Positions 3,001-26,565 of a DNA stretch of 64,000 nt are shown in pieces. Every line of letters begins with the position of its first letter. The stretch's first letter is position 1. A program made the translations under genes and the position numbers. This stretch comes from Narcine bancroftii (Eukaryota): NCBI RefSeq assembly GCF_036971445.1, contig NC_091477.1:4836001-4900000 (forward strand), given 5' to 3'. The notes under the pieces are model-generated. The model was not told where the DNA came from and did not search any database. It saw nothing but the letters and a program-made list of their open reading frames with translations.

Positions 3001-4998
3001 TAGGGGTGAATGATCTGATAGTAGTCTAGCATTATATCAGTTTTTCTAAATCTCCCTTGATTATGTTCTGACAACAAAAAATCATATCAATCCTTGAATA
3101 AGTTTTGTGCCTACTTGAATAATATGAAAATTCATTCTCTCCTGGGTGTTGCCTCCTCCATATATCCATAAGATTAATTTCCTGCATTGATTTAACCATA
3201 CATCTGGCTACTCTATTCTTTTTACTTGTCTTTTGTCCAGGTTTATCCAATATTGGGTCCAAATTAAGGTAAAAATCCCCTCCTATCAATATATTTCCTT
3301 GTGTGTCTGCAATCTTCAAAAAATATCCTGCATAAACTTTTGATCCTCCTCGTTAGGTGCATATATATTGAGCAAATTCCAAAATTTTGAGTATATCTGA
3401 CACTTTATCATTGCATACCTCCCTGCTGGATCTATTATTTCCTCCTCTATTTTGACTGGTACATTTTTGTTAACTAGTATGGCTAGATCTCTAGCTTTTG
3501 AATTATAGGATGCTGCCATTACATGTCCTACCCAGTCTCTCTTTAGTTTGTTCTGTTCCACTTCAGTTAGATGGATTTCCTGCACAAATGCTATATCTAA
3601 TTTTTCCTTCTTCAATAAATTTAGTGGCCTCTTCCTTTTAATTTGGTTATGTATTCCATTAATGTTTATAGTCATATAGTTCAACATGGCCTCTTTTCCA
3701 CATCTTCATCACCTCCATCCCCTTTGTACCCATTTTCATCTCTTAGTTTTCTCTTATTACACATAATGTATGGCAACACATTTAAGACATAAAGTTCCCC
3801 CGCAGTTCCCACATTCACTAATACCTTAACCCCAAAAGTTCCCCCTCTCTCTGAGTTTCCCCATACCCCATGCTGGGCAACCATAACTCCCCTTTTAATT
3901 TGGATTGCGATCTTGTTTGCAGTGTCAACTGATTTTGAAGTGACAGTTATTCCTCCTCTACCCAGCCCTCCCCAGAAAACACTTTTTTAACACATATAAC
4001 AAAGCTCACTCTCTTCTTTTCCCCCCTTACTCCCTTCCTTCCCTTCTCTTTTAACTCTTTAGTTCTTTATGCATACATTGTTTTTACATCTTTATATATG
4101 CTTTATTTTCATTCTTGCTACATCTTTTCATCTCTTCTCCTGTCCTGCAAACTTTCTGCAAATTCTTGCACTTTCTCTGGATCCGAGAACAGTCTGCTTT
4201 GTTCCCCAGGTATAAATATTTTAAGCATGGCTGGATGTCTTAATATGAATTTGTAACCTTTTTTTCCCAAAAAGTTGATTTTGCTGTATTAAATTCTTTA
4301 CTCCTCTTTAAGAGTTCAAAACTTATGTCTGGGTTAAAAATATTTTTTGACCCTTGTATTCTTATGGTTTATTATCTTCTCTAATTTTATTCCTTGCCCG
4401 TTCCAGTATATTTTCTCTTGTTGTGTATCTTAAAAAGTTTACTAAGATGGATCTTGGTTTTTGATGTGTCTGTGGTTTCGGAGCTAATGCTCTGTGTGTC
4501 CTTCCTATTTCCATTTCTTCCTGCATTTCTGTCATTCCCAGGACCTTTGGGAACCATCCTTTTATAAATTCCTTCATGTCGGTGCCTTCTTCACCCTCTT
4601 TTAGGCCCACTATTTTTATATTGCTTCGCCTACTATAATTTTCCACATATCAATTTTCTGAGATAACAACTCTTGTGTCTCTTTAATTCTTTTGACACTT
4701 TCTTCCAATTTTTCTCTTAAGTCATTTTCGTCCATTTCTACAGCCGTTTCCCGCTCTTCCACTCTTTTCCCGCTCCTTTCCCTATTTCTGTCATGACCAG
4801 TTCTAACCTTTGCATTTTATCTTCTGTTCTTTTCATGTTCCTTTTAATTGTATTAAATTCTATTGATAACCATTCTTTTAGTGATCTCATTTGTTCTTCA
4901 AAAAAGGCTTTATCTATATTCTGCTCATCAGTTTTATCTTCTATTTCTCTGTGAAGATCTTGGTCTTCTTCTTCCTCTAAGTCTGTGTCTGTATCTGT
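1..4998 (-). mobile_element. Decayed, 5'-truncated L1/Tx1-type LINE (ORF1 remnant ~4130-4998, ORF2 remnant ~3687 to beyond window start)
   Basis: Minus-strand ORF fragments: ORF1 (ENYSRRSNIKIVGLKEG, RTHRALAPKP...PRSILV), APE endonuclease (ININGI, FVQEIHL, GGDF, YSRID), RT (YRPISL, LDAEKAFDRVEW, CPLSP, FAGD) and a C-terminal CFRC motif. Many stops and frameshifts. Confidence 0.95.
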
Positions 4999-5004
4999 GA
5001 TTCT

Positions 5005-5130
5005 GTCCGAGAACGGGTAACACCCACTCCTGACGACGGCAGGGTCGCTCTGTTTTGGGTATCTTAGCAATCTAACTGTGAGAAAGTGCTATCTCTTCAC
5101 TCTTACCGAAACGGACGACCACCTGAGCAC
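5005..5130 (+). pseudogene. Possible remnant of the 3' end (cytoplasmic tail) of a protocadherin exon
   Basis: One frame reads TPDDGRVAL (cf. YPGTGRIVR in the 9032 gene). It is followed by gagaaagtgctatctcttc...ccg...cgg...ccacct, resembling gaaaagtgattttctcttc...ccgtgcgg...ccacct (KSDFLF region). Weak by-eye match. Confidence 0.35.
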
Positions 5131-6532: not shown

Positions 6533-8542
6533 CTTTCTTTGGCTTGGCTTCGCGGACGAAGATTTATGGAGGGGGTAAATGTCCACGTCAGCTGCAGGCT
6601 CGTTTGTGGCTGACAAGTCCGATGCGGGACAGGCAGACATGGTTGCAGCGGTTGCAGGGGAAAATTGGTTGGTTGGGGTTGGGTATTGGGTTTTTCCTCC
6701 TTTGCCTTTTGTCAGTGAGGTGGGCACTGCGGTCTTCTTCAAAGGAGGTTGCTGCCCGCCAAACTGTGAGGCGCCAAGATGCACGGTTTGAGGCGATATC
6801 AGGCCACTGGTGGTGGTCAATGTGGCAGGCACCAAGAGATTTCTTTAGGCAGTCCTTGTACCTTTTCTTTGGTGCACCTCTGTCTCGGTGGCCAGTGGAG
6901 AGCTCGCCATATAACACGATCTTGGGGAGGTGATGGTCCTCCATTCTGGAGACGTGACCCACCCAGCGCAGCTGGATCTTCAGCAGCGTGGACTCGATGC
7001 TGTCGACCTCTGCCATCTCGAGTACTTCGACGTTAGGGATGAAAGCGCTCCAATGAATGTTGAGGTTGGAGCGGAGACAACGCTGGTGGAAGCGTTCTAG
7101 GAGCCGTAGGTGATGCCGGTAGAGGACCCATGATTCGGAGCCGAACAGAAGTGTGGGTATGACAACGGCTCTGTATACGCTTATCTTTGTGAGGTTTTTC
7201 AGTTGGTTGTTTTTCCAGACTCTTTTGTGTAGTCTTCCAAAGGCGCTATTTGCTTTGGCGAGTCTGTTGTCTATCTCATTGTCGATCCTTGCATCTGATG
7301 AAATGGTGCAGCCGAGATAGGTAAGCTGGTTGACCGTTTTGAGTTTTGTGTGCCCGATGGAGATGTGTGTGGGGGGGGGGGCTGGTAGTCATGGTGGGGA
7401 GCTGGCTGATGGAGGACCTCAGTTTTCTTCAGGCTGACTTCCAGGCCAAACATTTTGGCAGTTTCCGCAAAACAGGACGTCAAGCGCTGAAGAGCTGGCT
7501 CTGAATGGGCAACTAAAGCGGCATCATCTGCAAAGAGTAGTTCACGGACAAGTTTCTCTTGTGACCTGCGCAACCTCATCTAACGCACCCCTACAGCCGA
7601 CAAGGTTGTCATCCTTGGCGACTTCAACGCTTGCGTCGGCAAAGACTCAGAAACATGGCCAGGAATCCTGGGCAAGCATGGCGTCGGCATTGCAACGACA
7701 ATGGGCGCCTCTTGTTGGAGCTCTGCGCAGAACAGCGGCTTGTCATTACAAACACCCTTTTTCAGCAGAGGGACAGCCTTAAGACTACCTAGATGCATCC
7801 CCGATCCATACACTGGCAACTCCTGGACTACATCCTGGAGCGAGAAAGTGACAAATGAGATGTGCTCCACACCAGGGTCATGCCCAGTGCGGAATGCCAC
7901 ACTGACCACCGGCTGGTTCGCTGCAAGCTAAACCTTCACTTCAAGCCAAAGCCCAGGAACAGTAAAGCCCCCAGAAAGAGGTTCAATGTTGGAAACTTGC
8001 AGTCAGACGAAGCAAGAGGAAACTTCCAGGCAAACCTCAAAGCAAAGCTCGACGATGCAATCCGCCTCACGTACCCGTCCCCTGAAACCCTCTGGGATCA
8101 GTTGAAGACTACCATACTGCAATCCACTGAAGAGGTACTGGGCTTCTCCTCCAGGAAAAACAAGGACTGGTTCGACGAAAACAGCCAGGAAATCCAGGAG
8201 CTGCTGGCAAAGAAGCGAGTTGCCCACCAGGCTTACCTTACAAAGCCGTCCTGTCCAGAGAAGAAACAAGCCTTCCGTCGCGAATGCAGCCATCTTCAGC
8301 GCAAACTCCGGGAGATCCAAAATGAGTGGTGGACTAGCCTCGCCAAACGAACCCAGCTCAGCGCGGACATTGGCGACTTCAGGGGTTTCTACGAGGCTCT
8401 AAAGGCTGTGTACGGCCCCTCACCCCAAGTCCAAAGCCCGCTGCGCAGCTCAGACGGCAAAGTCCTCCTCAGCGACAAGATCTCCATCCTCAACCGATGG
8501 TCAGAACACTTCCAATCTCTTTTCAGTGCCAACCGCTCAGTC
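6533..8542 (-). mobile_element. Young RTE-clade LINE with 5' inversion; 10-bp TSD CATTCAGTTT
   Basis: 6533-~7562 on the minus strand is the RT C-terminus (LLFADD, LRWVGHVSRM, GAPKKRYKD, CNRC zinc knuckle) plus an (AAAG)n tail. ~7562-8542 on the plus strand is the endonuclease end and linker (ILGDFN, TDHRLV, DWFDEN, RWSEHF). TSD at 6523-6532 and 8543-8552. Confidence 0.93.
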
Positions 8543-8732
8543 CATTCAGTTTATCACTTGTCTTAATAATGCTTTCGGTGTGGGTATAAAAAACACTGAG
8601 ATGGATGATATCTCAAGGAATTCATCTGTCTCTTCCTGATGCTAACCAATTTTCAAAAGGGAATTTGTAATTAACATGATCAGGACCATATTTTTAAATT
8701 GTGCACAACAAAATGGTCACAAGGACAGTCCA

Positions 8733-8820
8733 GCTTTAAGAAATGTCGATGTAGTTTGTTGAAAAGAACTGGGTGTGTCGCTGTGCACCAATAAGAATCG
8801 AAAAGGCAGGGATAGATCCA
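8733..8820 (+). promoter_or_regulatory. Clustered protocadherin promoter (CSE/CGCT element plus CCAAT)
   Basis: TGTCGCTGTGCACCAAT at 8776-8792, 256 bp before the ATG. GCTTTAAG at 8733, GATCCA at 8815. Confidence 0.85.
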
Positions 8821-9031
8821 TTTCCCGGCCCCTTCGACGTAGAAAGATCAGAAATGAGACGAAATGAGAACAATGCGCAGTTTTTACTTGGATGCCAGTT
8901 GAAAAAGATAACAACAATACAGTTATCTATTTAAAATATAAAAAAGAATACTACAATATTCTCGTAGAAGGCCATATCTCTGGATTTAATTGAGCTGTGG
9001 GTCGTATCGGGAAAGGATTTACTGCAGAACA

Positions 9032-11422
9032 ATGGCGAATTCGGCGATCAGCAACACCGCTGCTTTCCAAATCTTTGCGTTCCTAATTCTGGTATGTACA
9101 GAGCATTCAATTGCCGGGGAAATTCGGTATTCTATTCCCGAGGAAATGGAAGAAGGGGCTTTTGTCGGGAATGTCGCTCAAGATTTGGGATTGGAAATAC
9201 AGCAATTGTTTGATCGTAATTTTATGCTGACGTCTGATGACGGAGTAGATTATATTAATATTGAATTGCAGAGAGGGATATTATCCATTGCGAAAAAAAT
9301 CGACAGGGAGCAGATCTGCGGACAGGAAACAGCATGTACGATTTCCTTTAAAATCATATTGGAAAATCCTCTGGCGGTGTATCGCGGGGAAGTGGAGATT
9401 CTTGACGTGAATGATAATACCCCTACTTTCAGCGAGGGCACGATAGCTTTACAGATAGCGGAATCTATGGCACCGGGAGTTGGCTTCCCTCTAGAAAGTG
9501 CGCAAGATCAGGACGTTGGAATAAATGCAGTCGCTGCTTACACCATCAGTTCCAGTGCCTATTTCAGATTAAAGACACAAACATCTGACGACGGCGTGAT
9601 AGCTGTCGAGCTTCTGTTGGAGAAATCTTTGGACCGAGAGCTGAAATCATCCCTTCGGTTGGTTTTGACGGCGATCGATGGTGGGATCCCTCAGAGATCT
9701 GGCACAACACAGATTCTCATTACCGTAATGGACATCAATGATAATCCTCCTGTATTCGACCATAAAATATACCGAAGCAGCTTGAGAGAAAACGCGCCAC
9801 TTGGAAGCTTGGTGGTGACGGTCAAAGCTAATGACCTGGACGATGGGCCGAATGCTGATCTAACGTATTCCTTCAGCAAATTAACTTCACCAACATTGCG
9901 CGAAATGTTCAGTTGTGACCCCTATAGCGGAGAAATCCGAACCAATAGAAAGCTCGACTTCGAAAAATCTACCAGCTATTCACTCCACCTTCAAGCTGTG
10001 GACCATGGATCACCTGCAATTACGGGACACAGCCAGATCTTAGTCAAGATAATTGACGTTAATGATAACGCGCCCGAAATCAAAGTCACATCGACCACGT
10101 GCAAAATCATGGAAACCGTTTTGCCAGGAACTTTAATAACATTGGTCAATGTTATTGACCGTGATTCTGGTGAAAACGGGCAGATAAACTGCGAGGTGTC
10201 AGGGAGCATCCCCTTTAAACTTCAAACATCATCCAGCAATCACTATGAGTTGATTACGAGCGAGGAATTGGACAGAGAATCTGTCCCCGAGTATGAAGTA
10301 GTTCTAGTGGCCTGGGATTTTGGGTCGCCTTCATTATCGACAAATAAAACCATCCAGATCGTAATTACAGATGTAAATGATAATGCTCCTCTGTTTTCGG
10401 AACCCTCCTACAACATGTATTTGACGGAGAACAACGCTCCGGGGACTTCCATCTTCGCAATAACTGCCACGGATCCTGATATGGATCAGAATTCCTATGT
10501 TTCATATTCCCTCGTATGGAATAACATCCAAGACACGCGAATATCTAGCTTCCTCAGCATTAACGCATTGAATGGCACCATTTACGCGCTGCGCTCTTTT
10601 GACTACGAAAAACTCAAAACCTTCCAGATCCATGTTCAGGCCCGAGACGCTGGAGTTCCCCCATTGAGCAGCAGCGCTGCAGTGAATGTGATCATCTTGG
10701 ATCAAAATGACAACGCGCCTGTAATTGTTTCGCCTTCAGCGCAGAGTGGATCAGCATCTGCAGAGAGCCTGCCCCAGTCAGCGGATCAAGGCTACTTTGT
10801 CACCAAGATAATAGCAACTGATGCAGATTCTGGTCAGAACGCGCGGCTGTTTTATCAGGTTCACCATTCAACTGATCCCACCTTGTTCAACATTGAGCAA
10901 AACTCCGGTGAGATCAGAACTGCGCGCAGAATTTTCGAGTCCGACACCTCCATGCAAACTCTCGTCATCTTGGTGACAGACAACGGGCAGCCACGACTCT
11001 CCAGCACGGTTACAATTCACATTTCCTTTCAGGAGAACGTCACTGAAAGAATCACGGAAAGGAATAACTTGGTGTCGAATTCCGAATATGATTCTAATCT
11101 TCATCTTTATTTAATCGTCGTTTTCGGTTGCACTTCTCTTCTGTTCCTGGTGACCATCATTTTGTTGATTGGAATCAAATGTAAGCAAGAAGGAACTGTC
11201 ACCCAGGATCATAATTCCTCCAGTTGTTGCTACAGGCTTGGAGGTTCCAACGATGTGCTGGATCGGAGATATGGAACGGAGGAAACATTACGCTATCCTG
11301 GGACCGGCCGGATAGTTCGAGTGGGAGAAACACCGCATTACTCAGTCTGCCTCTCCCCAGAATCAGCGAAAAGTGATTTTCTCTTCCTGAAGCCGTGCGG
11401 TAGGCCCACCTCTCAGCCTTAA
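9032..11422 (+). CDS. Clustered protocadherin A1 (signal peptide, 6 cadherin repeats, TM, short tail; ~796 aa)
   Basis: ATG in CAATGGCG context at 9032 (the track's TTG start lies upstream). IRYSIPEE, EC1 Cys-X5-Cys (CGQETAC), repeated DRE/DxNDN/DxD motifs, TM (LYLIVVFG...), tail KSDFLFLKP. Confidence 0.95.
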   Translation: MANSAISNTAAFQIFAFLILVCTEHSIAGEIRYSIPEEMEEGAFVGNVAQDLGLEIQQLFDRNFMLTSDDGVDYINIELQRGILSIAKKIDREQICGQETACTISFKIILENPLAVYRGEVEILDVNDNTPTFSEGTIALQIAESMAPGVGFPLESAQDQDVGINAVAAYTISSSAYFRLKTQTSDDGVIAVELLLEKSLDRELKSSLRLVLTAIDGGIPQRSGTTQILITVMDINDNPPVFDHKIYRSSLRENAPLGSLVVTVKANDLDDGPNADLTYSFSKLTSPTLREMFSCDPYSGEIRTNRKLDFEKSTSYSLHLQAVDHGSPAITGHSQILVKIIDVNDNAPEIKVTSTTCKIMETVLPGTLITLVNVIDRDSGENGQINCEVSGSIPFKLQTSSSNHYELITSEELDRESVPEYEVVLVAWDFGSPSLSTNKTIQIVITDVNDNAPLFSEPSYNMYLTENNAPGTSIFAITATDPDMDQNSYVSYSLVWNNIQDTRISSFLSINALNGTIYALRSFDYEKLKTFQIHVQARDAGVPPLSSSAAVNVIILDQNDNAPVIVSPSAQSGSASAESLPQSADQGYFVTKIIATDADSGQNARLFYQVHHSTDPTLFNIEQNSGEIRTARRIFESDTSMQTLVILVTDNGQPRLSSTVTIHISFQENVTERITERNNLVSNSEYDSNLHLYLIVVFGCTSLLFLVTIILLIGIKCKQEGTVTQDHNSSSCCYRLGGSNDVLDRRYGTEETLRYPGTGRIVRVGETPHYSVCLSPESAKSDFLFLKPCGRPTSQP

Positions 11423-13019
11423 TGGTAAATCATATCCTTAATATCGAGAAATAACTCAATTGTCGGTTGTTATTTTACCATTTTCTCGCGTTTGAATCGA
11501 TGCACGTTACCTATATAATAATATATTTCCTTCCACATGTCTTGTTCTTGATTACACAAAGGGTATGACTTATTAGCCGTTATAGCCAAATAACCGTTAA
11601 CAGTATCTTCGCCTCCAATTAGAGGCTGCTCACTCTGTTAGACAATGTTTCTTCTATTGCCGAACTGTTTTATTTCTTTGTCAACTATTCAAAGCTTGTT
11701 AGCACATGAGCAAATAATTAAACCTGTTGAATTAACATATAAATTAAACATATAATATTCTTCATGCCGTATTGATACTACATGGTCATCAGTTCTATTC
11801 TCGTTATGGTTTCTGCTTCTAGGTACACTGCAATGTATTTCTCATATTCTTCATTTGATAGTATACTGCATTTCTATTTTGAAACAAAGTATGAAGATGT
11901 GGATTAGGAATTAATTATGTTACTTAATTATAAAAGCAACTGGAACGGTCATGACTTTCGAAGTTTACGTTAAAAATTAGAAAAAGAAGTAAGACCATTC
12001 GGCGAGTGTTCCCCGTGTATTTCATGATAATCAACCGGTTTATATTGGTGATCATCTCTGCTTCATGGTCTCTTCATAAATGGGCACAAAAGTATTGCGA
12101 TTGCAATTACATCTGAAATTATCGCAAGCAGGTGTTATAGGAAAGAGGCCAACACTAGCAATGGTGTCTATTGACGTAAAATATAATATAAATAAAAGCA
12201 ATTCAAATGTATGCTCACCATAATGAGGTTTACCCCCGAGAAAATATTCGGACTTTCAACCTTTCAACCTGAGATGAACTGAATGAAATAAACTGCATTA
12301 TGATAATTCTGGGTGGTACAAAAATTGACCATCTGAACGTCAGACGTCTTGCAGTATGATGGACGGGGTTAGATTGGTGTTTCTCTGTCCTGATTTTACC
12401 CATTTTACGTGTGCCTTTGGCATATCTGCTGATGACCTTCACTACACTATTAATGCTTCGATGCCATTATTTGCCGCTAATGGGGTTAAAGTGAGTTTTT
12501 TCGATTTTGTCGAATGTTTAGAATATGGTGATATTAACATAGAAATGAAAGACGTGGTAATTTATATCAATTGCACAGAAATATGCTTGAATTAACGTGC
12601 AATACTTTTAAGTATTATCAGACAAAGTACTTGTTAAACATCTGTACATATGTAAAACAGATAGGATGAATTGAGACGTTTATAATCTAGATAGTCATGC
12701 TTCAGATTAAAGTTGCAGTTACCGTTTGGCAAATTAATCGATTTTAAACTCAAAATAATGTTTATTTTTACTGAAATATATTCCAAATGGTCCATATAAT
12801 TCATTTATATCAACATATATTCATTACTGGAGTCATTGCTCTTGCACACGAATAGGGTTCTGCCTCAAAATTAATTAGTGAAATAGATCAATTGAAGTGA
12901 CAGGTTTTTCCCAAGCAGCAAATCAAATTTTATCGGTTACAAAAATTATTTCACCTGAACTGGATTTTGTGCACTCTATCAACCTTTCTATGACCTCAAG
13001 TCATAGAACCATAGAATGG

Positions 13020-14008
13020 TGTGATAGATAATGTTATATTTTATATCGTATATAGATATGTTTTAAAGGAGATAAATTATGGCAGGGTTTTTAATTAGAT
13101 CACACACATATACAAACACTTCAAAACTGTTCTCATTTAAAATGCCAGTGCTCTACTCAAGCCAGACAATCCAGACTCCGGGTGCCTTTGCAAAAATTTT
13201 GAAGAAGGCCTATAAGGACTTCACAAGTAGGTGTTGATTGGGCATGTTGTGGATTAATGGATTATTGTTTAGGGAAGCAAAAGATGAACGAACTCAGAAG
13301 ATTGGGTTTGGTGGTGCAGTCTGAGTGTAGTTTGCTCTCCTAAGNNNNNNNNNNNNNNNNNNNNNNNNNNNNNNNNNNNNNNNNNNNNNNNNNNNNNNNN
13401 NNNNNNNNNNNNNNNNNNNNNNNNNNNNNNNNNNNNNNNNNNNNNNNNNNNNNNNNNNNNNNNNNNNNNNNNNNNNNNNNNNNNNNNNNNNNNNNNNNNN
13501 NNNNNNNNNNNNNNNNNNNNNNNNNNNNNNNGAGAGGTTTTCATCTGGAATACCCTGATGGGCACGTTTCTTTGGCAAGACACTCAAATGGCTGATCTGA
13601 AGGAAACAGTTATGTATGTCCAACAAGCAACAAATCACTCTGAAAACCAACAAGAATCTTGCTGAGATGTAACTATTTGCCTTTCAAGCACCAAAGTCTG
13701 GTGAAATTCATAAATTTTAAATATTGTGCACAGTTTAAGAATTGCCTGCAACCAGTGAACTTGGAGGAATAAGAAGTGAGATTGGACTGCGAATTAAAGA
13801 ATTTTTCTGAAATTATGTACACATCACATACACGTGCGCTTAGAAGTAGAAAGGGGTTAAGTTAGGTTAAGTGAAGGTAATAGTAGCAAGTTAAAGTTTG
13901 ACCCTGTTTTCATCTATAAAGATAATTAAAAGTAACATTTGTGGATGTAACCATTTGTCTTGGTGAATTTCTATTGTTGCTGAATTTTGGGGTTCTCTGG
14001 GTCATAGA
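13020..14008. mobile_element. Solo LTR-like repeat spanning an assembly gap
   Basis: Starts TGTGAT. 13532-14005 aligns with 46203-46645 (atctggaa.accctgatg, aagaattgcctgca.ccag.gaacttgga, acatacacgtgc.cttagaa, aagttaaagtttga). Confidence 0.6.
13345..13531. other. Assembly gap (N run)
   Basis: Run of N. Confidence 1.
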
Positions 14009-14009
14009 A

Positions 14010-14635
14010 CTGGATGTAAGTCCTTCAGTTCATTGTCCATGCCTACCACGCTTGTCCCATTTAAATAAACCACTCATGTCTTCCAAACCTTTCTTATTCA
14101 CGTAGATCCTAAATGCCTTTTTAAAGTAACAATTGTCTCCGCTTGTACAATTTCCTTTGTCCGCTCGTTGCAAGTACCCACAACCCTCCATGTGACAAAG
14201 GTATTTCCGGGGCCCGTTTTATGTTTTTATCTCTTCGTAGAAAATGGCCCTGCTTAAGTATCAAATCACAGCTATCGTTATTTTATAAACCTCTTCTGTA
14301 TACGGACCAGTTTGGTTTCCTTTTCCTCTGATAAAAAAGTTCCAGCCTATCAGGCTTCAAGCCTATCATCCCATACAATATTCTCCTGAATCTGTTCTGT
14401 AGCCTTTCCAGCTTAACAACATAGTTTCTATGTCTTGGTGTCCAGATTTGCCAACAATACCCCAAGTGCAGTCTCACTAACGTCACGTACAGTTCTAACC
14501 TGACATGTTGCTCCTGTATTCTATGCCCTGACAGAAAAGGCAAGGGTGCCAAGTTCCTTTCACCACTCTCTCTACCTCCAGCGCCAATGTAATGGAATGA
14601 TGTAGGCATGGCTCTTTGTTCTACAGCGCTCTCCA
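14010..14635 (-). mobile_element. Old CR1 LINE 3' fragment (paralogous to 22380-23090)
   Basis: Minus-strand ORF LYVTLVRLHLGYCWQIWTP...LERLQNRFRR is a CR1 ORF2 C-terminus signature. Confidence 0.75.
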
Positions 14636-14793
14636 GTCTAGATCATGAAATTAACTCTTGTGAATTGAAAAGGAGAATATTGCAGCAAACCTCAGTCACA
14701 CAATGCAGGAGCATGAATGGCAACTTGACCTCTGCAGCCACGTTGCATTATATTTTCCACCTATTGCTGCATTTGGTTGAATTCCTCTGAATG

Positions 14794-14930
14794 CCGCATG
14801 ATGGCGCAACAATTAATGCTGTTGTCCCACGGATCCAGGGACCAAGTTTGGAACCTGACGTTGGCGCAGCTTTTGTGGAAATGACACAGTGTCTCCTTGA
14901 AACTTCCCTCACACCATCTGTGTTCCAGTT
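14794..14930 (+). mobile_element. Old tRNA-derived SINE head (paralogous to 23255-23370)
   Basis: tggcgcaacaattaatgctgttgtccca...ccagggacc...cctgac pattern of a decayed A/B-box head, repeated at 23263. Confidence 0.5.
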
Positions 14931-15849
14931 ATATTCCACAAAAACGAGCTGGTACCTCATATTGTTATTGCCTAGCACACATTTGTATAAGTTAATGCGA
15001 AAGAAGTGAAAGGTGGGATGCTGCGCATGTATGTAGGCAATTCATCTGCAGAGGTACAGGGTAATTAGAAGAGAGGATGTGATGCACATCTGAGAAACGT
15101 TATAGTTCCGATGGCTTCCTGTACCGTTTTAGATTGGATCTGCAAAAATTGAAACTTCCAGACATGGAGCATTACACGATAAAACCGACTATAATTAGAA
15201 TAGTGTGTTGATACTAATCATTTGGTTTCACTTTTATTTCCCTTATTTTGAAATTTCGAAGTTGCACAACTGTAAATATAGCTATAACGTTGCATTGTAA
15301 TCCATATATTGCTGTCTTTGGTCATCAGAATGGAGCGTGATGAAACATTATCCTATTTATTGGCTACATTATTCGATTGTTTTCCAAATTAAATGAAGTT
15401 AATGTGAAAAGTTCGGAAATTAAATCTGTCAAAAATTCAAATCAGCATTTTTTCTGATGTTTCAAATGACGGTGTACAGGAAATTTAGTTATTAATAACA
15501 CATGAGAGTAGTCTTTTTCTGTTATCAAACAGCGACTTAATACATTGGGAAGAATGTTTCTCTTTACCCCTCAATACGATTATCTGACGTTGTGATAGCT
15601 GTTATCCGAAGTCGCTCGTCTGCCTTATTCCATTCAATTGAATGAACTATTAAAAAAAAAGTCATATTGCACCATGCATACGTTGGTTGGGAACATAATC
15701 TCTTTAATTTAAATTGTCCTCTCATCTAACATTCATGACTTCCAAAGATAGATGTTGCAAAATAAATCGATAACTAGATTTATCTAAGACTCCTTTATCG
15801 CCATACAATGGAGGAAAGTTTGGATTGACGATCTGTCGATCTCAATGGC

Positions 15850-15895
15850 GAAAAGAACTAGTTGTGTCGCTATGTACCAACGAGAATCGAAAACG
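15850..15895 (+). promoter_or_regulatory. Orphan protocadherin CSE with no exon behind it
   Basis: aaaagaactagttgTGTCGCTATGTACCAACgagaatcgaaaa closely matches the A1/A2 promoter. Downstream sequence matches the pseudogene leader at 24350-24475, then no cadherin coding sequence follows. Confidence 0.7.
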
Positions 15896-16888
15896 CTGAG
15901 AAAACATTAGAAATGACAATAATTACGCGTTCAGATCGTGAAGTCACGATGAGAAGAATAAAATCAAGTTTTCATGTATTTAACATGTCTATACTTTGTA
16001 GCATGTATTTTACAAAATACAGGTTTTCATTTTTAGAGATTAAGGATTTGGCCACACTAGACCTGAAGCCATCATGGACCAAACGAACTGCAGCCGTGAC
16101 GTTACAATATTCTGAAATGCCAAGGAAAACAATCCAAGGGAGAAACATTAAGATGAACAATCAAAGCTATTGTTGCGCCAGGATACAAAAACAATATGGA
16201 ATTAAAATGTTAAAGTCGGAAAGAATATATGATCTTAATGTAGCAAATAGTCCAAATGCAAAAATGCAGCTAATAATGTTAGATCTGCATATCCATATGC
16301 CTTATTGAATGAAAGATTATTATCGCAGTTCCAACTCAATCCTGATGCTCTTGAAAATTAATCCAGCACGTGTTATAACCTTATAAATGTCCCTAAATTA
16401 AGAATTCTGTCAAAATCTAAAAACCACAGATTCCTTCAAATTTACTGTACTCTCTCCGCATGACATCAGATAATTAATATTTACAGACTTTTATCTAACT
16501 TGATCGATATTCATCCAGTTCATAATATTGAATTTGGCTTACGGTCAACATTGTATATGTACTTGTGACACAAGTCAATTTGCAGCTAATACAGCAATTT
16601 GGTTATTGAATAGATCGTGACGAAAAACGGTCAAAGCCTTAGATTGCTGTGCCCAATGTTAGTCAAGAACGACCTTTACTCTATTGGCACCAGTAAATGA
16701 TAGAGTGTACACTCTGGCCGCTTTTTCTATTACTATGCTTTCCTCGTGGGTAAAGCACTGGTTCTCAGCTCAAGATATTCATCTGCCTGATTGCTGTTGA
16801 TTCCTGATTTTCAAAAGGAAGTCATATTTGAGACATTAAGGACGATGTTTTAAAATTGTACACTACGAAATATTCGCAGGACAGTCCA

Positions 16889-16975
16889 GCTTTAAGAAAT
16901 GTTGATGTAGTTGTTTAAAAGAACTGGGTGTGTCGCTGTGCACCAATAAGAATCGAAAAGAGGGAGATGGATCCA
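16889..16975 (+). promoter_or_regulatory. Clustered protocadherin promoter (CSE plus CCAAT)
   Basis: TGTCGCTGTGCACCAAT at 16931-16947. GCTTTAAG at 16889, GATCCA at 16970. Confidence 0.85.
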
Positions 16976-17187
16976 TTTCCCGCCCCATTCGCAACGAAAA
17001 AAAATCAGAATGGAGAAGAAACGGAACAATGCGCAGTTTTTACTTGGATGCCAGTTGAAAAAGATAACAACAATACAGTTATCTATTTAAAATATAAAAA
17101 AGAATACTACAATATTCTCGTAGAAGGCCATATCTCTGGATTTAATTGAGCTGTGGGTCGTATCGGGAAAGGATTTACTGCAGAACA

Positions 17188-19578
17188 ATGGCGAATTCGG
17201 CGATCAGCAACACCGCTGCTTTCCAAATCTTTGCGTTCCTAATTCTGGTATGTACAGAGCATTCAATTGCCGGGGAAATTCGGTATTCTATTCCCGAGGA
17301 AATGGAAGAAGGGGCTTTTGTCGGGAATGTCGCTCAAGATTTGGGATTGGAAATACAGCAATTGTATGATCGTAATTTTATGCTGACGTCTGATGACGGA
17401 GTAGATTATATTAATATTGAATTGCAGAGAGGGATATTATCCATTGCGAAAAAAATCGACAGGGAGCAGATCTGCGGACAGGAAACAGCATGTACGATTT
17501 CCTTTAAAATCATATTGGAAAATCCTCTGGCGGTGTATCGCGGGGAAGTGGAGATTCTTGACGTGAATGATAATACCCCTACTTTCAGCGAGGGCACGAT
17601 AGCTTTACAGATAGCGGAATCCATGGCACCGGGAGTTGGCTTCCCTCTAGAAAGTGCGCAAGATCAGGACGTTGGAATAAATGCAGTCGCTGCTTACACC
17701 ATCAGTTCCAGTGACTATTTCAGATTAAAGACACAAACATCTGACGACGGCGTGATAGCTGTCGAACTTCTGTTGGAGAAATCTTTGGACCGAGAGCAGA
17801 AATCATCCCTTCGGTTGGTTTTGACGGCGATCGATGGTGGGATCCCTCAGAGATCTGGCACAACACAGATTCTGATTACCGTAATGGACAACAATGATAA
17901 TCCTCCTGTATTCGACCATAAAATATACCGAAGCAGCTTGAGAGAAAACGCGCCACTTGGTAGCTTGGTGGTGACGGTCAAAGCTAATGACCTGGACGAT
18001 GGGCCGAATGCTGATCTAACATATTCCTTCAGCAAATTAACTTCACCAACATTGCGCGAAATGTTCAGTTGTGACCCCTATAGCGGAGAAATCCGAACCA
18101 ATAGAATGCTCGACTTCGAAAAATCTACCAGCTATTCACTCCACCTTCAAGCTGTGGACCATGGATCACCTGCAATTACGGGACACAGCCAGATCTTAGT
18201 CAAGATAATTGACGTTAATGATAACGCGCCCGAAATCAAAGTCACATCGACCACGTGCAAAATCATGGAAACCGTTTTGCCAGGAACTTTAATAACATTG
18301 GTCAATGTTATTGACCGTGATTCTGGTGAAAACGGGCAGATAAACTGCGAGGTGTCAAGGAGCATCCCCTTTAAACTTCAAACATCATCCAGCAATCACT
18401 ATGAGTTGATTACGAGCGAGGAATTGGACAGAGAATCTGTCCCCGAGTATGAAGTAGTTCTAGTGGCCTGGGATTTTGGGTCGCCTTCATTATCGACAAA
18501 TAAAACCATCCAGATCGTAATTACAGATGTAAATGATAATGCTCCTCTGTTTTCGGAACCCTCCTACAACATGTATTTGACGGAGAACAACGCTCCGGGG
18601 ACTTCCATCTTCGCAATAACTGCCACGGATCTTGATATGGATCAGAATTCCTATGTTTCATACTCCCTCTTATGGAATAACATCCAAGACACGCGAATAT
18701 CTAGCTTCCTCAGCATTAACGCATTGAATGGCACCATTTACGCGCTGCGCTCTTTTGACTACGAAAAACTCAAAACCTTCCAGATCCATGTTCAGGCCCG
18801 AGACGCTGGAGTTCCCCCATTGAGCAGCAGCGCTGCAGTGAATGTGATCATCTTGGATCAAAATGACAACGCGCCTGTAATTGTTTCGCCTTCAGCGCAG
18901 AGTGGATCAGCATCTGCAGAGAGCCTGCCCCAGTCAGCGGATCAAGGCTACTTTGTCACCAAGATAATAGCAACTGATGCAGATTCTGGTCAGAACGCGC
19001 GGCTGTTTTATCAGGTTCACCATTCAACTGATCCCACCTTGTTCAACATTGAGCAAAACTCCGGTGAGATCAGAACTGCGCGCAGAATTTTCGAGTCCGA
19101 CACCTCCATGCAAACTCTCGTCATCTTGGTGACAGACAACGGGCAGCCACGACTCTCCAGCACGGTTACAATTCACATTTCCTTTCAGGAGAACGTCACT
19201 GAAAGAATCACGGAAAGGAATAACTTGGTGTCGAATTCCGAATATGATTCTAATCTTCATCTTTATTTAATCGTCGTTTTCGGTTGCACTTCTCTTCTGT
19301 TCCTGGTGACCATCATTTTGTTGATTGGAATCAAATGTAAGCAAGAAGGAACTGTCACCCAGGATCATAATTCCTCCAGTTGTTGCTACAGGCTTGGAGG
19401 TTCCAACGATGTGCTGGATCGGAGATATGGAACGGAGGAAACATTACGCTATCCTGGGACCGGCCGGATAGTTCGAGTGGGAGAAACACCGCATTACTCA
19501 GTCTGCCTCTCCCCAGAATCAGCGAAAAGTGATTTTCTCTTCCTGAAGCCGTGCGGTAGGCCCACCTCTCAGCCTTAA
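17188..19578 (+). CDS. Clustered protocadherin A2, near-identical paralog of A1
   Basis: Same architecture as 9032-11422, with 8 amino-acid differences between the two translations. Confidence 0.95.
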   Translation: MANSAISNTAAFQIFAFLILVCTEHSIAGEIRYSIPEEMEEGAFVGNVAQDLGLEIQQLYDRNFMLTSDDGVDYINIELQRGILSIAKKIDREQICGQETACTISFKIILENPLAVYRGEVEILDVNDNTPTFSEGTIALQIAESMAPGVGFPLESAQDQDVGINAVAAYTISSSDYFRLKTQTSDDGVIAVELLLEKSLDREQKSSLRLVLTAIDGGIPQRSGTTQILITVMDNNDNPPVFDHKIYRSSLRENAPLGSLVVTVKANDLDDGPNADLTYSFSKLTSPTLREMFSCDPYSGEIRTNRMLDFEKSTSYSLHLQAVDHGSPAITGHSQILVKIIDVNDNAPEIKVTSTTCKIMETVLPGTLITLVNVIDRDSGENGQINCEVSRSIPFKLQTSSSNHYELITSEELDRESVPEYEVVLVAWDFGSPSLSTNKTIQIVITDVNDNAPLFSEPSYNMYLTENNAPGTSIFAITATDLDMDQNSYVSYSLLWNNIQDTRISSFLSINALNGTIYALRSFDYEKLKTFQIHVQARDAGVPPLSSSAAVNVIILDQNDNAPVIVSPSAQSGSASAESLPQSADQGYFVTKIIATDADSGQNARLFYQVHHSTDPTLFNIEQNSGEIRTARRIFESDTSMQTLVILVTDNGQPRLSSTVTIHISFQENVTERITERNNLVSNSEYDSNLHLYLIVVFGCTSLLFLVTIILLIGIKCKQEGTVTQDHNSSSCCYRLGGSNDVLDRRYGTEETLRYPGTGRIVRVGETPHYSVCLSPESAKSDFLFLKPCGRPTSQP

Positions 19579-21149
19579 TGGTAAATCATATCCTTAATTT
19601 CGAGAAATAACTCAATTGTCGGTTGTTATTTTACCATTTTCTCGCGTTTGAATCGATGCACGTTACCTATATAATAATATATTTCCTTCCACATGTCTTG
19701 TTCTTGATTACACAAAGGGTATGACTTATTAGCCGTTATAGCCAAATAACCGTTAACAGTATCCTCGCCTCCAATTAGAGGCTGCTCACTCTGTTAGACA
19801 ATGTTTCTCCTATTACCGAACTGTTTTATTTCTTTGTCAACTATTCAAAGCTTGTTAGCACATGAGCAAATAATTAAACCTGTTGAATGAACATATAAAT
19901 TTCGATGAAGGAACTTCTCACCGTACACAAAATTGTCTGCATGCAGTTTTGACACTACGTCGTCATCCACTTCAGTCTTAGCATGATGTCAGCTTCTAGG
20001 TGCATTCTAAATTATGTAACAAAATGTTCAACTGGCAGAATACTTTATTTATGTTTTTAATCCAAGTAGAAATGTGGGAAAATGGAATTCGTTATTTAAG
20101 TTAATTTCAAAAGCAATTGGAGCGCTCATGACATTTGACTTTTACTTTAAACATCCGACCCAGAAGTCAGGCCAGACGGCGTGTGTGCCCATGTGCTTGA
20201 TTATAATCAACCTGTTTCTATTCGTGGTCATGTCTGCATCCTCACTGTATTTATAACTCGGCTCAAATGTATTTGTATTGCAATTACAGTAACTGTAAAT
20301 GGGGGTTCTAAAAGTCGCCGAGACTGGCATTTGTGTTTATAGGCGTTAAGCATAATATTAAATCCAACAACGTTCATAGGCTTATTTGCAATCATGAGGT
20401 TTCTTCTTGAGAAAATCTTTTGGACTTTCAACCTATTACAATGTATGATATGGTAGCCATAAAACTATTATCATTCTTCTTGCAAAAACAGTGAACCATC
20501 TAAACCTCAGTCATTTTGAAATTCGCCGGCTGGGGTTTAAGTAGTTTTCTCTGTCCTGGCTTGAACAATTCAAGACATGCCTTGATTTCCTTCATAATGT
20601 AATTAATCACATGGCACCTTTATTTGAGGGCTAACGGGGTTAATAGTAATTGAGGTTTTTTTTCGAAGTTGTCGGCTTTTAGGGTATGGTAATTTTAATA
20701 TAGAAACAAGAGAAGTGGGAGTTTGAATTAATTGCAGGGATGTGTGTTTGAATTGATGTGCAATGTCTTTAAGCATGATCAGAGAGGATACTATCAAACG
20801 ACTTTCTGACATATATATGGCAGATATAATTCAGAGGCTTGGAGTCCTAATGGCCAAGCTTCGGAAATTGGCTGCAGTTACTGAATAGAAAAGTTGTCTA
20901 TTTAAAAATCTAAAAAAGTTTATTTTGATTGAAAGAGGAACAACTCACATTTGGTGCCTAGAATTTATTGATATCAATGTATTTTCATTGCTGGTGTCAT
21001 TGCTATTGCACAAGTATCGGTTATCATCAGAGAGTTGATCCCAATAGCATTACTGGCCTAAATTCAGAGTTTGTCCGAATTAGACCACTTTTGTACGACT
21101 GGATTTTGATTAAATTCCAGCAGGAAATAGCGCTAGCAAATTCATGAGT

Positions 21150-21280
21150 CAAGCAGAGCCCATAGCCGAAACGTTAACCTTTACTTTCTATGAATGATGC
21201 GTGATCTGCTGAGATTCTTCACCACACTTGCGTATTGCGCGCAACCAAAGCATCTGCAGAATTTCTTGTTTAACGCCTTC
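21150..21280 (+). repeat. Decayed Penelope-type terminal repeat fragment
   Basis: gccgaaacgttaacc...gatgcgtgatctgctgagattcttcaccacac...agcatctgcaga, similar to the arms at 60459-60702. Confidence 0.45.
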
Positions 21281-22379
21281 TTTATCATTTTTCTATGGAA
21301 TGAAGACTAAGCAATTGGGTCCGCTGCTGCCATCTTCTTGTGGTCAATAGAGGAATCAATATTCTGAACACATCACAGGAACGTGGGACGGCCTGGTTAA
21401 CGGTATGATGTGGTGTGGTTCAGGTGTGCAGGAAGTCGAACGGTCTCAAAGAGCTGTCAAATAAATATCAATTGATAAAATGGACAAACGTAGCTGCCAA
21501 TTGCGGATCTGTGGTGATGTATTCAAGAAATCGAGATGTTGACGACTTTTTCAATGCTCGAAGTTACTATATCTATAAGCATTTTGTTTTACTACCGTGA
21601 TTTACGTCTATATGAACTATTCTACATGATCTGTTTGAATGAAAATACCATGTTCCACGTCTTTAACCACCGGAAATAAACAGTTATTCTTTTTACAAAA
21701 CGTGTTCATGCCTGTTTCTGATCATTTAAAAGAAAGAACTAGAGACCCTGCGTCTTCGCAAGCGCTTGTTGAAGAGCTGGCTGAACAGCTCTTCCATTTG
21801 GTAGCAGTAAAGACACGCCGGTTGATGACGGCAGTAGCAGAATCCGAATGACAGTAACTCAAGGCAAGGAAGAACCACGAACAGTGGAATCTATGGATAA
21901 CTCAGCGAAGCTGCTGAGCCTACGCGAGGCCCAACAGAAGATGGATAAACTGATGCCTACATCATTTTACTTACTCACGCTTCATTAGATTTAATTTCAT
22001 TGTGAATGCTTAAATTCTAAAATTTGGTTCAGTCTGAACACATTGATAAAGCCAGCTCAATAATTGTCCTTAGCTTCTCCTTCCAAATGGGATGACTGTA
22101 ATTTTTTCAATTGAGTATTACCTGATTAATGTCGGTTATCACATCATTTCTGACAAACAACTTTGCTCAAATAATTAATTTTAAAATTGTTGTTTAATGT
22201 CGATTGGGGTGAATCACATTGAACGTGCAGAATAACAAATATTCAGCAATTGCTTCGTGAAGCGGATCAAATGCAGTGACGGTTGTGCCGCAGGCAGCAA
22301 TAACTCGAAATATTATTTCAACTGAAGTGGGTTCTCGGCACCGCATGAAACGCTAAACGCAACTGATTTCGTCATTGAG

Positions 22380-23090
22380 ATCTATAGCATGAAAAAAGAT
22401 CATTCGACCTGATGTCCAAGCCGACAAAGCTAGTCCCACTGACATGAGCTTCATCTATATCCTCTAAACCTTTCGTATTCATGTACCTCCTAAATATCTT
22501 TTGAATGGCACAATGGTCTCCATGTGTATTGTTTTATTCGACCGCTCGTTCCATATATCCACAGCCGTCCATGTAAAGAAGGTGCCTCTGAGGTCCCTTT
22601 TCAACCTTTCTCCTCTACCCTCTAATTTAAAATTCACGAACTCTACGAAAAAGCCACTGACTATTTACTTAATATATGCCTATCATTGTTTTATAAACCT
22701 CTACAATTACCACATGTGCTCCAGAGAGAAAATGTGCGGCATATTGAGCTTCTCCCTATAATTCTCTTAACCACATAACCATTTGCAACACAGAAAGAGG
22801 CCGATTTGGCCCTACTAGTCTGTGCCGAACATCTTTTCCTACCTATTCCCACTGAACCGCATTTGGCCCATAACTCGTTCTGCATAACAATATGTTTTTT
22901 TTATGTCGGGTGACTAAAGTGCAGTCTCACTAACGTCCTGTACTGTTCTACCATAACTCTGATCCTGTATTCAATACCCTGAAGGAGAAAGTCAAGGGCG
23001 TCAAAAGTATTTTCCACAATTGGTTTCGGTTCGTCGTCAATTTCATGGAACAATAATCATGAACCCCCGTATCTCTTTGTTCTACAACAC
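22380..23090 (-). mobile_element. Old CR1 LINE 3' fragment
   Basis: Shares aagtgcagtctcactaacgtc and tctttgttctaca with 14464-14625; co-duplicated with that region. Confidence 0.65.
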
Positions 23091-25119
23091 TCCCTTTTAT
23101 TGAACATGGAATTAACTCCTGTAAATTCAAAATAATAATGTTGCAGCAAAGTTCAATCTCGCAATGCATGAGCATATGTTGCACCCTGACCTCTCCAACC
23201 AAGATGAGTTATATTTACGACCTTTCGATACGTGTGGTGAAATTCTTCTAACTGCCACAAGATGGCGCAGCGGTTAATACTGTTGGACCTCAGATCCAGG
23301 GACTTCGTTCGGTCCTGACCTTTGCGCTGGCCTTGTGGAAATTGCACATTGACTCCTCGATATTTTCATGCATGTCTCTTATAATGATCTTATAAATGAG
23401 CTGGTAACTTAAATTGCTATTGTCTATCACGCATTTGTGTAGGTGAATGCAAAATAAGGCGGAGGTGAGATGTTGCACATGTATGTAAGTGAATAATATA
23501 CAGACGCACAGGGGAATTAAAAGATGGGGTGTGTGTCTGATAACATTTCTCTATGGGACTCGTCATGTCCCCGATGATCTCCTGTATTATTAAGAAAATA
23601 ATTGAATCGGAAAGAATTAAACTTTTTGAGATAGAACTTTCTGTGATAGAAGCGACTATTATGAGAATGTTGAGCAGTTACTAATTATTTAGCTTCACAT
23701 CCTTTCTCTGTGTTCAAGTCGGTCAACGATAAACCTGGCCATATTAGTTGCATTCTAATCTATATATTGCTGTGTTTAGCCAACACAATGAAACGTGACG
23801 AAACATTTTGTAAATTATTGGCTATCATGTTCGATTCTTTTTCCAAATTAAATGAAGTAAACGTACAAATGTCTAGAGATTAAAACAGGCAAAATCCCAA
23901 GCAACATTGTTTTCCTGTTTAAAATGAGGTTGTACTTGAAAATGGGATCTGAATTACACACAAGAGTAGCCTCTTTCTGTGGTTAGCCAGTAATAAATAG
24001 GTTTGGAAGAATGCATATCTCCTTCATCCCCAATACAATAGTGATATTTGCCGTCTGTTCAATTGAATGAATTATTTTGGACAGAATTTACATCATGGGT
24101 ACGTTGGATGAGAAAATAATCTTTTTGATTATATTGTCCTCTAATCTGACAATCATGCTTTATGAAGATAGATGTTGCAACATAAATCGATTAATTTGGT
24201 TATCTATGACGGTTTTATCACCATCAACCTTTAAATATTTCAGAGGGCAGTTTAGACTTATGAAGTGTCAATGTCAGTGCTGAATAGAAATGATCGACTT
24301 GCACCAACGCAGTGATTGATCCTTTGCTTCTCTTTCTTCGCAGCAAAAAGATAGGAAACTATTATGAAGATACCAATTACGCGTTCAAATTGTGGAGTCA
24401 AAGCAAGAAGGATGGAAGTTGAGCATGTATTTATTCAAGATGTTAATACTTTCTGGCATATATTTTAGAATGACCCGTTTTCTGCACTAATACAGAAGAG
24501 TGGAAAATAATGCATTTAACAACAACGGCAAACCCGGAGAGTGACAACATATTTGCTTTCAAGAGGTATTCCCTAATGATTCTGGTACACATATCGGAAT
24601 TGAATTCCGGGAAAAATCATTAATCTATAACCGATGAGCTGGAGCAAGGTGCCTTTGTGGGCAACAACGTTCAAGATTTGAGACTGAATACTCCAAAATT
24701 ATCCAAGCGCAAATTTCGAGTAAACTGTGAGGACGGGGGAGAATACATGAAGGTTAACATGGATAATGGTAATTTGTCTCTTTGTGAAATAATCAACAGG
24801 GAGTCAGTCTGTGGACAAGTTAATTTGTGTACTATCCTTTCGAAATAGTCCTGAAAGTCCTTTGGAGATGTATCGCGGGGAAGTCGAGATTCTTCTTGAC
24901 AATTCCCCCACTTTCTTGACAATTTCCCCGCTTTCTCAGACAGTAATATCTTCTTACACAGATCCGAATCGATGCAGCAGGTATGTTATTCACTCTCGAG
25001 ACTGCAGAAGATCCAAATGTTGGAATAAATGCATCTGTGGCTTACACAATCAGTTACAATGTACTTTAGTCTAAAATCTGAGAGAACTGAGGACGGTGTG
25101 AAAATTGTTAAAATGCTGG

Positions 25120-26565
25120 ATGAGAATTGTTGTGGTCTGGTGCACTGATCTCTGTCTGGCCGAGGCCAGACAACAACATTCATATACCTCCTCTTATTTA
25201 TTCCTCCAACAGGTCCCCACGAAAACTCATCAAACCACTGTATTTGAACTCATTCCTTCCAGTCACCTCCCTGGCTCGGCTTTCACCATTGTTTTCCAAC
25301 ATCACACCTCCCACCTAAGATCCACAAACGCAATTGCCCTAGCAGACCCATCGTGTCTGTCTGGTTCTGACCCACCGAATTAGTCTTCGCTTACTTCGAC
25401 TTTATTTTGTCTGCCCTGATCCAGTCCCTCGCCATCGACACACGGTACACATGACATGCACTCCATCACTTCAAAAACGTCCAATTCCCTGAACTCGATC
25501 GATTCATGTTTACCATGAACATCCAATGCCTAGACACTTCCGTTTCCCATAATGAAGGACTCAAAGCCCTTCATGTCTTTCTGAGTAATAGCCCCAACCA
25601 GTCACCCTCCACCTACCATATTCCTCCAGTTGGAAAAACTTATCCTCACCTTCAATAATTTCTCCTTTGACTTATTGCACTTTCTCCATGTCCAATGGGG
25701 AGCCATGGGCACCCAGAAAGGTCCCAGCTATGCCTATCATTTTGCTGGCTACTGGAGCAATCCAGGCTACAAGTCTATACAGGAAAGGCCCCTCAACCTT
25801 TCATAGGCTACACCAATGACTACTTTGGTGCTGCCTCATGATGAGCTCGTTGACGTCATCCACTTTGTGGCTAGCTTTCAGCCTCCCCCTCAAATACACT
25901 TGGTCCATCTTTAGCAACACTATCCCTTTCCTTGATCTCTCTGTATCCATCTCGCGAGACAAACTATAGACAATCATCTCCACACCCATCAACTCTCACA
26001 GTTACCTCGACTACATGGTCCACTGTGAAGATTCCATTCCTTTCTCTCAATTCCTCCTACTCCGTCGCATTGTACCCAGGATGTGGACTTCCATGCCATA
26101 TCATAAGTGATGTCCTCCTTCATCCAACAGTTTTGTTTTCCCTCCACCACCATCTACTCGGCGCTCACCCACATATCCTTATTGCTCGCACCTCTGTGCT
26201 CGTCCCCTCTCTCCCCATGCACAACAAGGACATGAGTCCATATATCCGAACTCTCACCGTGTAATTATTTCATGAGGTTAAGTCAAAACACTCAGAAGTA
26301 GGATGAAAAATGATTTTTAAATATTTCTGTAAATTTTATGCATTTCGAATTACCGTAACATTTATGAATAATTTTATTGAGAATAGGTTCTTGAACTCAC
26401 CAGCCTCCGCATCAAAATATGTTCCTCTGAAATTTCCACTGCCTACCAGTGATTCCACCACAAGAGTCATGTTATTCTCTCCTACCCTCTCCACCTTTCA
26501 CCGGGACTGCTCCCTCAATGACACTCTTGTCCACTTCTCCCTCCCCACCAATCGTCCCCTTGGAA
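25120..26565 (+). mobile_element. Decayed Penelope-like element (RT region)
   Basis: RPIVS, MFTMNIQCLDTSVSHNEGL, GAMGTQKGPSYA and IPFSQFLLLRRI motifs are readable; C/T-rich coding strand. Confidence 0.85.
26254..26393 (+). repeat. ~140-bp direct copy of 28050-28188
   Basis: tcaccgtgtaattatttcatgaggttaag...attgagaatag.ttcttg is present at both sites with few differences. Confidence 0.95.

Follow-up and report, generated by a model that had tools for sequence, protein, structure and literature searches.

Two protocadherin variable exons that lie in tandem on the forward strand of a 64,000-nt stretch of the Narcine bancroftii genome (contig NC_091477.1, positions 4,836,001 to 4,900,000; hereafter the window, in whose coordinates all positions are given) are almost identical in sequence, and are embedded in flanks that are homologous but strongly diverged. 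Exon A (9032-11422) and exon B (17188-19578) each encode 796 amino acids, with a signal peptide, six cadherin repeats (extracellular repeats, EC1 to EC6), a transmembrane (TM) segment, a short tail and their own stop codon, and the two proteins differ at 8 residues. The homogenised tract, delimited by comparing the copies with each other and represented by one collapsed contig that they share, covers the leader, the whole exon and 321 nt behind a splice donor (8868-11745 in copy A, 17024-19901 in copy B). Identity between the paralogues is far above that of their homologous flanks, silent and non-coding sites included, as is typical of conversion tracts. We consider it probable that repeated non-allelic gene conversion, acting inside an island bounded by indels, has preserved the similarity of A and B. 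That the copies recombined in one of three forms (repeated conversion, one long conversion, or unequal crossing-over) is near certain, because selection alone fails to explain the silent and non-coding counts.

In an ungapped comparison at an offset of 8156, the two tract copies differed at 19 of 2878 positions (99.3% identity) and at no indel, in agreement with the constant offset and ~99% identity described in the first-pass annotation of this DNA; outside 8868-11745, matching at this offset was at chance level. The leader showed no difference (0/164 nt), the post-stop part of the tract differed at 5/323 nt, and the coding sequence (CDS) at 14/2391 nt, in line with the approximate count made by eye in the annotation, with 8 changes altering an amino acid and 6 silent. 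All 14 fell within 9210-10514, and were followed by 928 nt without any difference (10515-11442; P = 0.012 for such a run among 19 random sites). This run, which comprises most of EC5, EC6, the TM segment and the tail and matches the last ~900 bp of CDS in which no substitution had been noticed, is likely a younger, nested conversion. Six of the 14 CDS differences were in EC2 (P = 0.007 for that domain alone). The proteins were 98.4% identical over EC1-3 and 99.4% over EC5 to the end, with 6 of 426 residues differing over EC1-4 (98.6% identity); the differing residues are 60, 176, 204, 235, 307, 391, 482 and 495. The pair therefore lacks the canonical 3'-regional protocadherin pattern, in which the boundary falls at EC4/EC5 and EC1-3 are left diverged.

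The Kimura two-parameter (K2P) distance was 0.006-0.016 in the tract. Gapped alignments showed that the downstream flanks (11746-12856, starting in A at a 21-nt gap relative to B, and 19902-21020) differed at 344 of 1077 aligned sites with 16 indels (K2P 0.42), and that the far-upstream flanks (8558-8721 and 16725-16877) differed at 55 of 153 sites (K2P 0.49), which bears out the earlier account of homologous but diverged flanks with indels. The promoters of A (8722-8867) and B (16878-17023) form an intermediate layer, with 16 of 144 sites differing (K2P 0.12; 89% identity over 8722-8867). Sharp edges had been claimed on both sides. Downstream the edge is indeed a clean step at the 21-nt indel (50-nt bins of 94-100%, then 68, 62, 68 and 70%), but upstream it is graded, with 89% identity in the promoter, 54-70% beyond, and a 1-nt indel at the tract limit. 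A 9-nt direct repeat straddles A's downstream edge, where A has its 21-nt gap, and a tandem-repeat scan found no tandem repeat within the tract or at its edges. Silent differences numbered 6 at 549 sites, compared with 175 expected at the flank rate (binomial P about 1e-80), and non-coding differences 5 at 487 sites, compared with 156 expected (binomial P about 1e-72).

The duplication that produced the pair is much older than the tract. Downstream of each exon lies a second homologous segment, designated unit X (14034-16028) behind A and unit P (22413-27212) behind B, both on the forward strand; 14034-16028 and 22413-24482 were 63.6% identical over 2140 columns (K2P 0.37-0.43). Two separate non-coding stretches thus give the same age (K2P 0.42 and 0.37-0.43), and the A/B duplication is therefore old. 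A single duplication of a two-gene unit of about 8 kb is likely, and judging from these distances the duplication would be some 30- to 70-fold older than the tract. The proposal that an old duplicate pair was recently homogenised fits all tests that were run. In protein trees, the tip branches of A and B measured 0.002-0.010 and their common stem 0.24-0.26; their sisters were single sequences from skate and sawfish, with weak support. The exon taken alone would make the pair look very young, and exon-only trees would date this old pair accordingly. A retro-copy or a short transposed duplicate was considered and ruled out by the collinear homologous flanks and the intron sequence in the tract.

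Contigs assembled from raw reads, drawn from 5 of 9 sequencing runs and placed on each copy, demonstrate that both copies are physically present. Runs X1 and X4 are DNA runs of one sample, possibly the source of the assembly, yet independent of its assembly steps; X5 and X6 derive from two other samples and are presumed to be RNA, as supported by a GT..AG joint that is absent from DNA run X1. The tract collapsed to a single 2865-nt contig with a depth of 12.3 in X1 and 10.4 in X4. Exact junction contigs were found for A upstream (depth 5.4 in X1, 5.1 in X4) and downstream (4.4 and 4.9), and in X1 for B upstream (5.27) and downstream (8.8); the diverged flanks themselves had exact contigs for A in X1 and X4 and for B in X1 (19859-22400), and X5 and X6 contained pieces of both downstream flanks. 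The junction contigs include 43 letters of the tract downstream and 30 upstream, the latter one below the bridging threshold. Summed flank depths were 10.7 and 13.2 in X1 and 11.8 upstream in X4, close to the tract depths, and all four junctions occur in contigs; the pair is therefore not an assembly collapse. Collapse or fill-in of one exon from the other, which the annotation had named as the outcome that would overturn its reading, is thus contradicted by a tract at about twice flank depth and by all four junctions in raw-read contigs. No exact contig for A's 8540-8775 was found, although coverage holes prove nothing, and the order of A and B across the gap of 187 N between the two units (13345-13531) rests on scaffolding. 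This gap adjoins a very high-copy repeat, with read depth up to 90,000 at 13048-13208. We also observed that X1 depth downstream of B (19859-22400) was 8.8 and that downstream of A (11703-13060) 4.4, which may be noise or a structural allele, and that at 16260 X1 has 22 nt more than the assembly, an insertion that repeats a nearby motif and is likely a second allele. Run X9, labelled organism B, was tried as an outgroup and set aside, its pieces being short and mostly identical to the window.

Of 18 variant sites in the collapsed contigs, 8 showed both letters across four runs and the other 10 one letter only; at a 19th site both letters were present, one in each of two junction contigs. The run contigs never carried the B letter at any of five neighbouring EC2 sites, nor the A letter at 9210 or 9805, and X1 shows a third letter at 11081. 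Because contigs drop rarer variants, some of the differences in the assembly are likely polymorphisms of a single haplotype or errors, and fixed divergence may amount to fewer than 19 sites. The contigs of each sample were mosaics whose letters were not sorted by locus, and collapsed contigs cannot be phased to a locus; the mosaics fit, without proving, loci that share alleles. Assigning contig letters to loci (unspliced to A, spliced to B) was attempted and abandoned, because contig depth is a poor measure of expression and the exon side of the splice joint is common to A and B.

Among the forms of recombination, repeated conversion is favoured because the homology falls into layers of different age (K2P 0.12 in the promoter, 14 differences within 9210-10514, and an unbroken match over the 928 nt that follow), because GC content at third codon positions (GC3) is raised, and because the same edge profile is known from Drosophila. 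GC3 was 394/796 (49.5%) in A/B and 919/2155 (42.6%) in the other three exons of the window, which are distant paralogues (P = 0.001), and 53% in EC5 to the end compared with 46% in EC1-4 (P = 0.05). The concentration of differences in EC2 and the identical EC5-to-tail segment match the published order, in which EC2/3 are least and EC5/6 most converted. We can postulate that a unit of A plus X was duplicated to give B plus P, and that the flanks drifted and acquired indels, whereas the exon stayed alike enough to serve as a repair template. Conversion would have been confined to the exon and its immediate borders, with tracts stopping at the 21-nt indel downstream and fading through the promoter upstream, and the 3' part would have been overwritten last.

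Several observations weigh against repeated conversion. The GC3 contrast depends on those distant paralogues, and there is no GC rise in the non-coding tract (33-34%, compared with 34-36% in the flanks). The downstream drop has no shoulder and is equally explained by one long event, and the EC2 cluster was not significant in a scan test (P = 0.09). The contig mosaics can arise from bubble removal, and a tip pair with single weak sisters is what recent duplication would give as well, since protein trees cannot separate it from conversion. With one genome, neither the timing nor the direction of exchange would be established.

The closest competitor, which we regard as unlikely but deserving of weight, is one long-tract conversion, by gap repair or template switch, that copied about 2.9 kb between the loci. 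The 21-nt gap and the 9-nt repeat would then be the scar of an imprecise end, with A as recipient, and the missing downstream shoulder, the occurrence of AACATATAA on both sides of A's edge and the flat GC of the non-coding tract are all in keeping with such an event. However, it leaves the three identity layers and the 928-nt identical run to be explained, and since a conversion event requires a template alike enough to pair, it would itself point to earlier exchange. Tracts of several kb ending by microhomology joining have been described in mammalian cells with a sister-chromatid reporter (PMC5104497), which speaks for the single event.

Less likely still is unequal crossing-over, in which a crossover at one edge would produce three copies and a crossover at the other edge would contract the array. 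Its final sequence would be the same as that from conversion, and in a single genome such a two-step exchange is not distinguishable from gene conversion. The cluster is turning over, as seen in the orphan promoter of X and the pseudogene of P, and the X1 downstream depth of 8.8 for B against 4.4 for A could come from a fused one-copy haplotype. The upstream junction depths are nevertheless equal (5.4 and 5.27), which is unlike a fused haplotype, the depths are low and noisy, and two crossovers at the limits of homology would be required.

We consider it very improbable that the pair is an assembly artefact, in which one exon would be a filled-in copy of its partner, or two alleles of one locus would have been set in tandem across the gap. 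The gap between the units, the absence of any record spanning a whole copy with both flanks, the stretch of A at 8540-8775 without an exact contig, and the single letter at 10 of 18 variant sites (so that rare alleles or consensus errors may account for some of the 19 differences) speak for it; the agreement of tract depth with summed flank depths in both DNA runs, the exact contigs for all four junctions, the partial presence of both downstream flanks in X5 and X6, and the implausibility of alleles 30% apart over more than 1 kb speak against it. Purifying selection alone, to which the intact open reading frames (ORFs) of both copies and a ratio of amino-acid changing to silent differences per site (pN/pS) of 0.40 might appeal, can be practically dismissed, with silent and non-coding sites 30-fold more alike than the flanks.

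The homogenised region had been described as leader, exon and 3' untranslated region (UTR). This holds for the leader, the exon and the downstream non-coding DNA, but the supposed 3' UTR is partly intron. A joint present in X5 and X6 but absent from DNA run X1 leaves out 1725 nt bounded by GT..AG and leads from 2 nt past the stop codon to 21306; its shorter side is only 29 letters long and is common to A and B. It defines a probable intron in the 3' UTR (19581-21305) and a probable non-coding terminal exon (21306-21680, AATAAA at 21675), the latter covered by contigs 21305-21661 (X5) and 21305-21669 (X6). An unspliced contig continues into the intron, with A's letter at 11443. With both spliced and read-through contigs present, the post-stop part of the tract is therefore probably intron in one transcript form and UTR in another. 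Around A, within 8540-13340, the run contigs showed no splice joint, although holes prove nothing, and no homologue of the terminal exon was found behind A. Splicing to shared coding constant exons, as in the alpha and gamma clusters, was not observed in the stretches covered by the run contigs, as the stop precedes the donor and the joint leads to a non-coding exon. The variable exon would thus encode the whole protein, and its relatives seem to be alike, ending at about the same place. A donor 2 nt past the stop, joined to a non-coding last exon, is a junction that would escape nonsense-mediated decay.

A and B belong to a tandem array on the forward strand of five intact or cut exons and one pseudogene, as expected of a protocadherin cluster, with further exons at 31008, 35806 and 62255. 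The layout is that of a variable exon, with signal peptide, six EC repeats, TM segment and short tail all encoded by a single large exon, and the Pfam content of the 796-aa ORFs (Cadherin_2, five Cadherin, Cadherin_C_2) follows the clustered-protocadherin pattern. Both proteins match solved alpha, beta and gamma ectodomains, the best including Pcdh alpha7, gammaB4 and gammaA9. Among the 120 best of 7711 matches, the nearest relatives of exon A were ray protocadherins at 65-70%, and the closest full-length relatives ray proteins from Pristis (70%) and Amblyraja (69%). Unit X consists of upstream DNA and an orphan promoter (15812-15901), behind which tblastn found no protocadherin exon, and unit P of upstream DNA, a decayed promoter and a protocadherin pseudogene exon (24528-25124 and 26760-27212) that carries stops, frameshifts and a repeat insertion.

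A CGCT box adjoining a CCAAT motif is found before A (about 8779-8795), B, C and D and at the orphan promoter, and such a box (also CSE, conserved sequence element) is described for clustered protocadherin promoters (PMC7811963). It lies at 8779, 16935, 30763 and 35565 for A to D, and is altered before exon E (about 62000), where the adjoining CCAAT is kept; the cluster may have two promoter types. The orphan promoter region (15812-16028) lies 1.1 kb upstream of the promoter of B and retains an intact CGCT box; it could still bind CTCF or act as a driver of B. Elsewhere in the window, 1-5006 (reverse strand) and 47590-52631 (forward strand) are inverted copies, 85% alike, of a broken 5-kb element resembling a long interspersed nuclear element (LINE), whose fragments, labelled from their translations, resemble L1-type ORF1, endonuclease and reverse transcriptase. 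A 228-aa ORF at 7880-8566, which resembles a LINE ORF2 fragment without a Pfam match, abuts A's promoter region and terminates the A/B upstream homology at about 8558. A 145-nt direct repeat, 95% alike, occurs inside and behind the pseudogene exon (26249-26393 and 28045-28188).

Clustered protocadherins work because paralogues differ in EC1-EC4. The A/B tract covers this specificity-setting part, and A and B are therefore likely to give nearly the same recognition code; they would likely bind each other in trans, representing about one code under two promoters. Mouse beta6 and beta8, 92% alike in EC1-4, do not cross-bind, yet a protein with one interface residue swapped mostly behaves like its parent (PMC8901172). 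In gammaA isoforms, the self-contacting residue 206 has been put forward as determining specificity (PMC5106212). The A/B difference I235N (I/N at mature residue 206 of A) corresponds in the alignment to chain position 207 in gammaA9 and to position 206 in alpha4 and alpha7, and so would lie within one residue of that self-contacting position. The pair offers a naturally occurring way to ask how small a number of changes can set two codes apart.

To place the pair among its relatives, we aligned 102 shark, ray and chimaera proteins of single-exon length, taken from a set of 153 proteins after removal of bony-vertebrate matches and fused models, with the four window proteins, treating Narcine bancroftii proteins as paralogues of the same genome. 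Six of 395 within-species pairs showed the classic 3' bias (EC1-3 compared with EC5 to the end), among them Pristis P0100/P0107 (79% and 95%), Leucoraja P0055/P0149 (79% and 96%) and Narcine P0113/P0114 (75% and 96%). Four of the 395 were at least 95% identical in both halves: A/B, Narcine P0029/P0123, Mobula P0028/P0126 and P0092/P0152, the last of which was set aside because it probably represents a single gene in two assemblies. Members came from only 10 clusters, so that close pairs are undersampled, and P0029/P0123 and P0028/P0126, compared without flanks, may be true recent duplicates. The first-pass annotation had set A/B against the low conversion reported for elephant shark. That contrast is smaller than implied, because the classic 3'-biased pattern is visible in rays, where conversion is not rare.

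The reports of low conversion in anole, coelacanth and elephant shark rest, as described in PMC2764143, on the ratio of highest to lowest synonymous divergence (dS) among domains, which is 1.8-2.3 in the elephant shark subclusters delta, epsilon, mu and nu (PMC2764143, PMC4978886). We infer that this ratio is blind to whole-exon events. We can only tentatively suggest, as a possibility that we doubt, that the protocadherin clusters of sharks and rays regularly undergo whole-exon concerted evolution. If so, many apparently recent lineage-specific duplicates would be old loci whose exons and specificity domains still exchange alleles, gene counts would overstate the number of recognition codes, published calls of low conversion would have arisen artefactually from the domain-ratio test, and the few EC2 positions that still differ, for instance I/N at mature residue 206, would be sites where selection resists overwriting. 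Our literature search, mostly of non-subscription sources, found no whole-exon protocadherin conversion and no conversion in a ray cluster; Yu 2008 and Noonan 2004 may describe whole-exon cases. The mechanism itself is known and ordinary, and its extent through EC1-EC4 unusual for protocadherins.

Mammalian Pcdh-beta genes, which are described as having no constant exons (PMC7811963), share with A/B a variable exon with its own stop that encodes the whole protein; Pcdh-beta is, however, reported absent from elephant shark, and the donor 2 nt past the stop in exons of the A/B type likely splices to a non-coding exon. The elephant shark cluster has the same cartilaginous-fish tandem variable exons, and is reported to be little converted by a ratio unable to register whole-exon homogenisation. 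Regional conversion in fugu, zebrafish and mammals (PMC1852091) affects the same family and resembles A/B in its nucleotide identity above 99%, discrete boundary, raised GC3 in the 3' part and least homogenised EC2. There, however, the boundary is placed in EC4/EC5 (fugu tracts stop inside EC4 or EC5), the 5' part is 60-80% alike and a subcluster is involved, and EC2-3 are described as escaping conversion (PMC4978886; PMC3966226), whereas in A/B the whole exon, the leader and the start of the intron are covered, in a single pair and in a cartilaginous fish. Concerted evolution of pairs with converted introns is established in the accounts of Drosophila Amy and Bob blocks (PMC2588116) and of BMP8A/B, DDX19A/B and TUBG1/2 (PMC2720389). 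Like A/B, these have an alike middle, silent and intron sites included, with diverged edges inside an older duplicated block, and the U-shaped profile of Amy and Bob, attributed to long-term conversion, recurs in A/B. Those cases were proven with orthologues from other species, whereas A/B is known from the paralogues of one genome; and unlike them, A and B belong to a family whose function relies on difference between paralogues.

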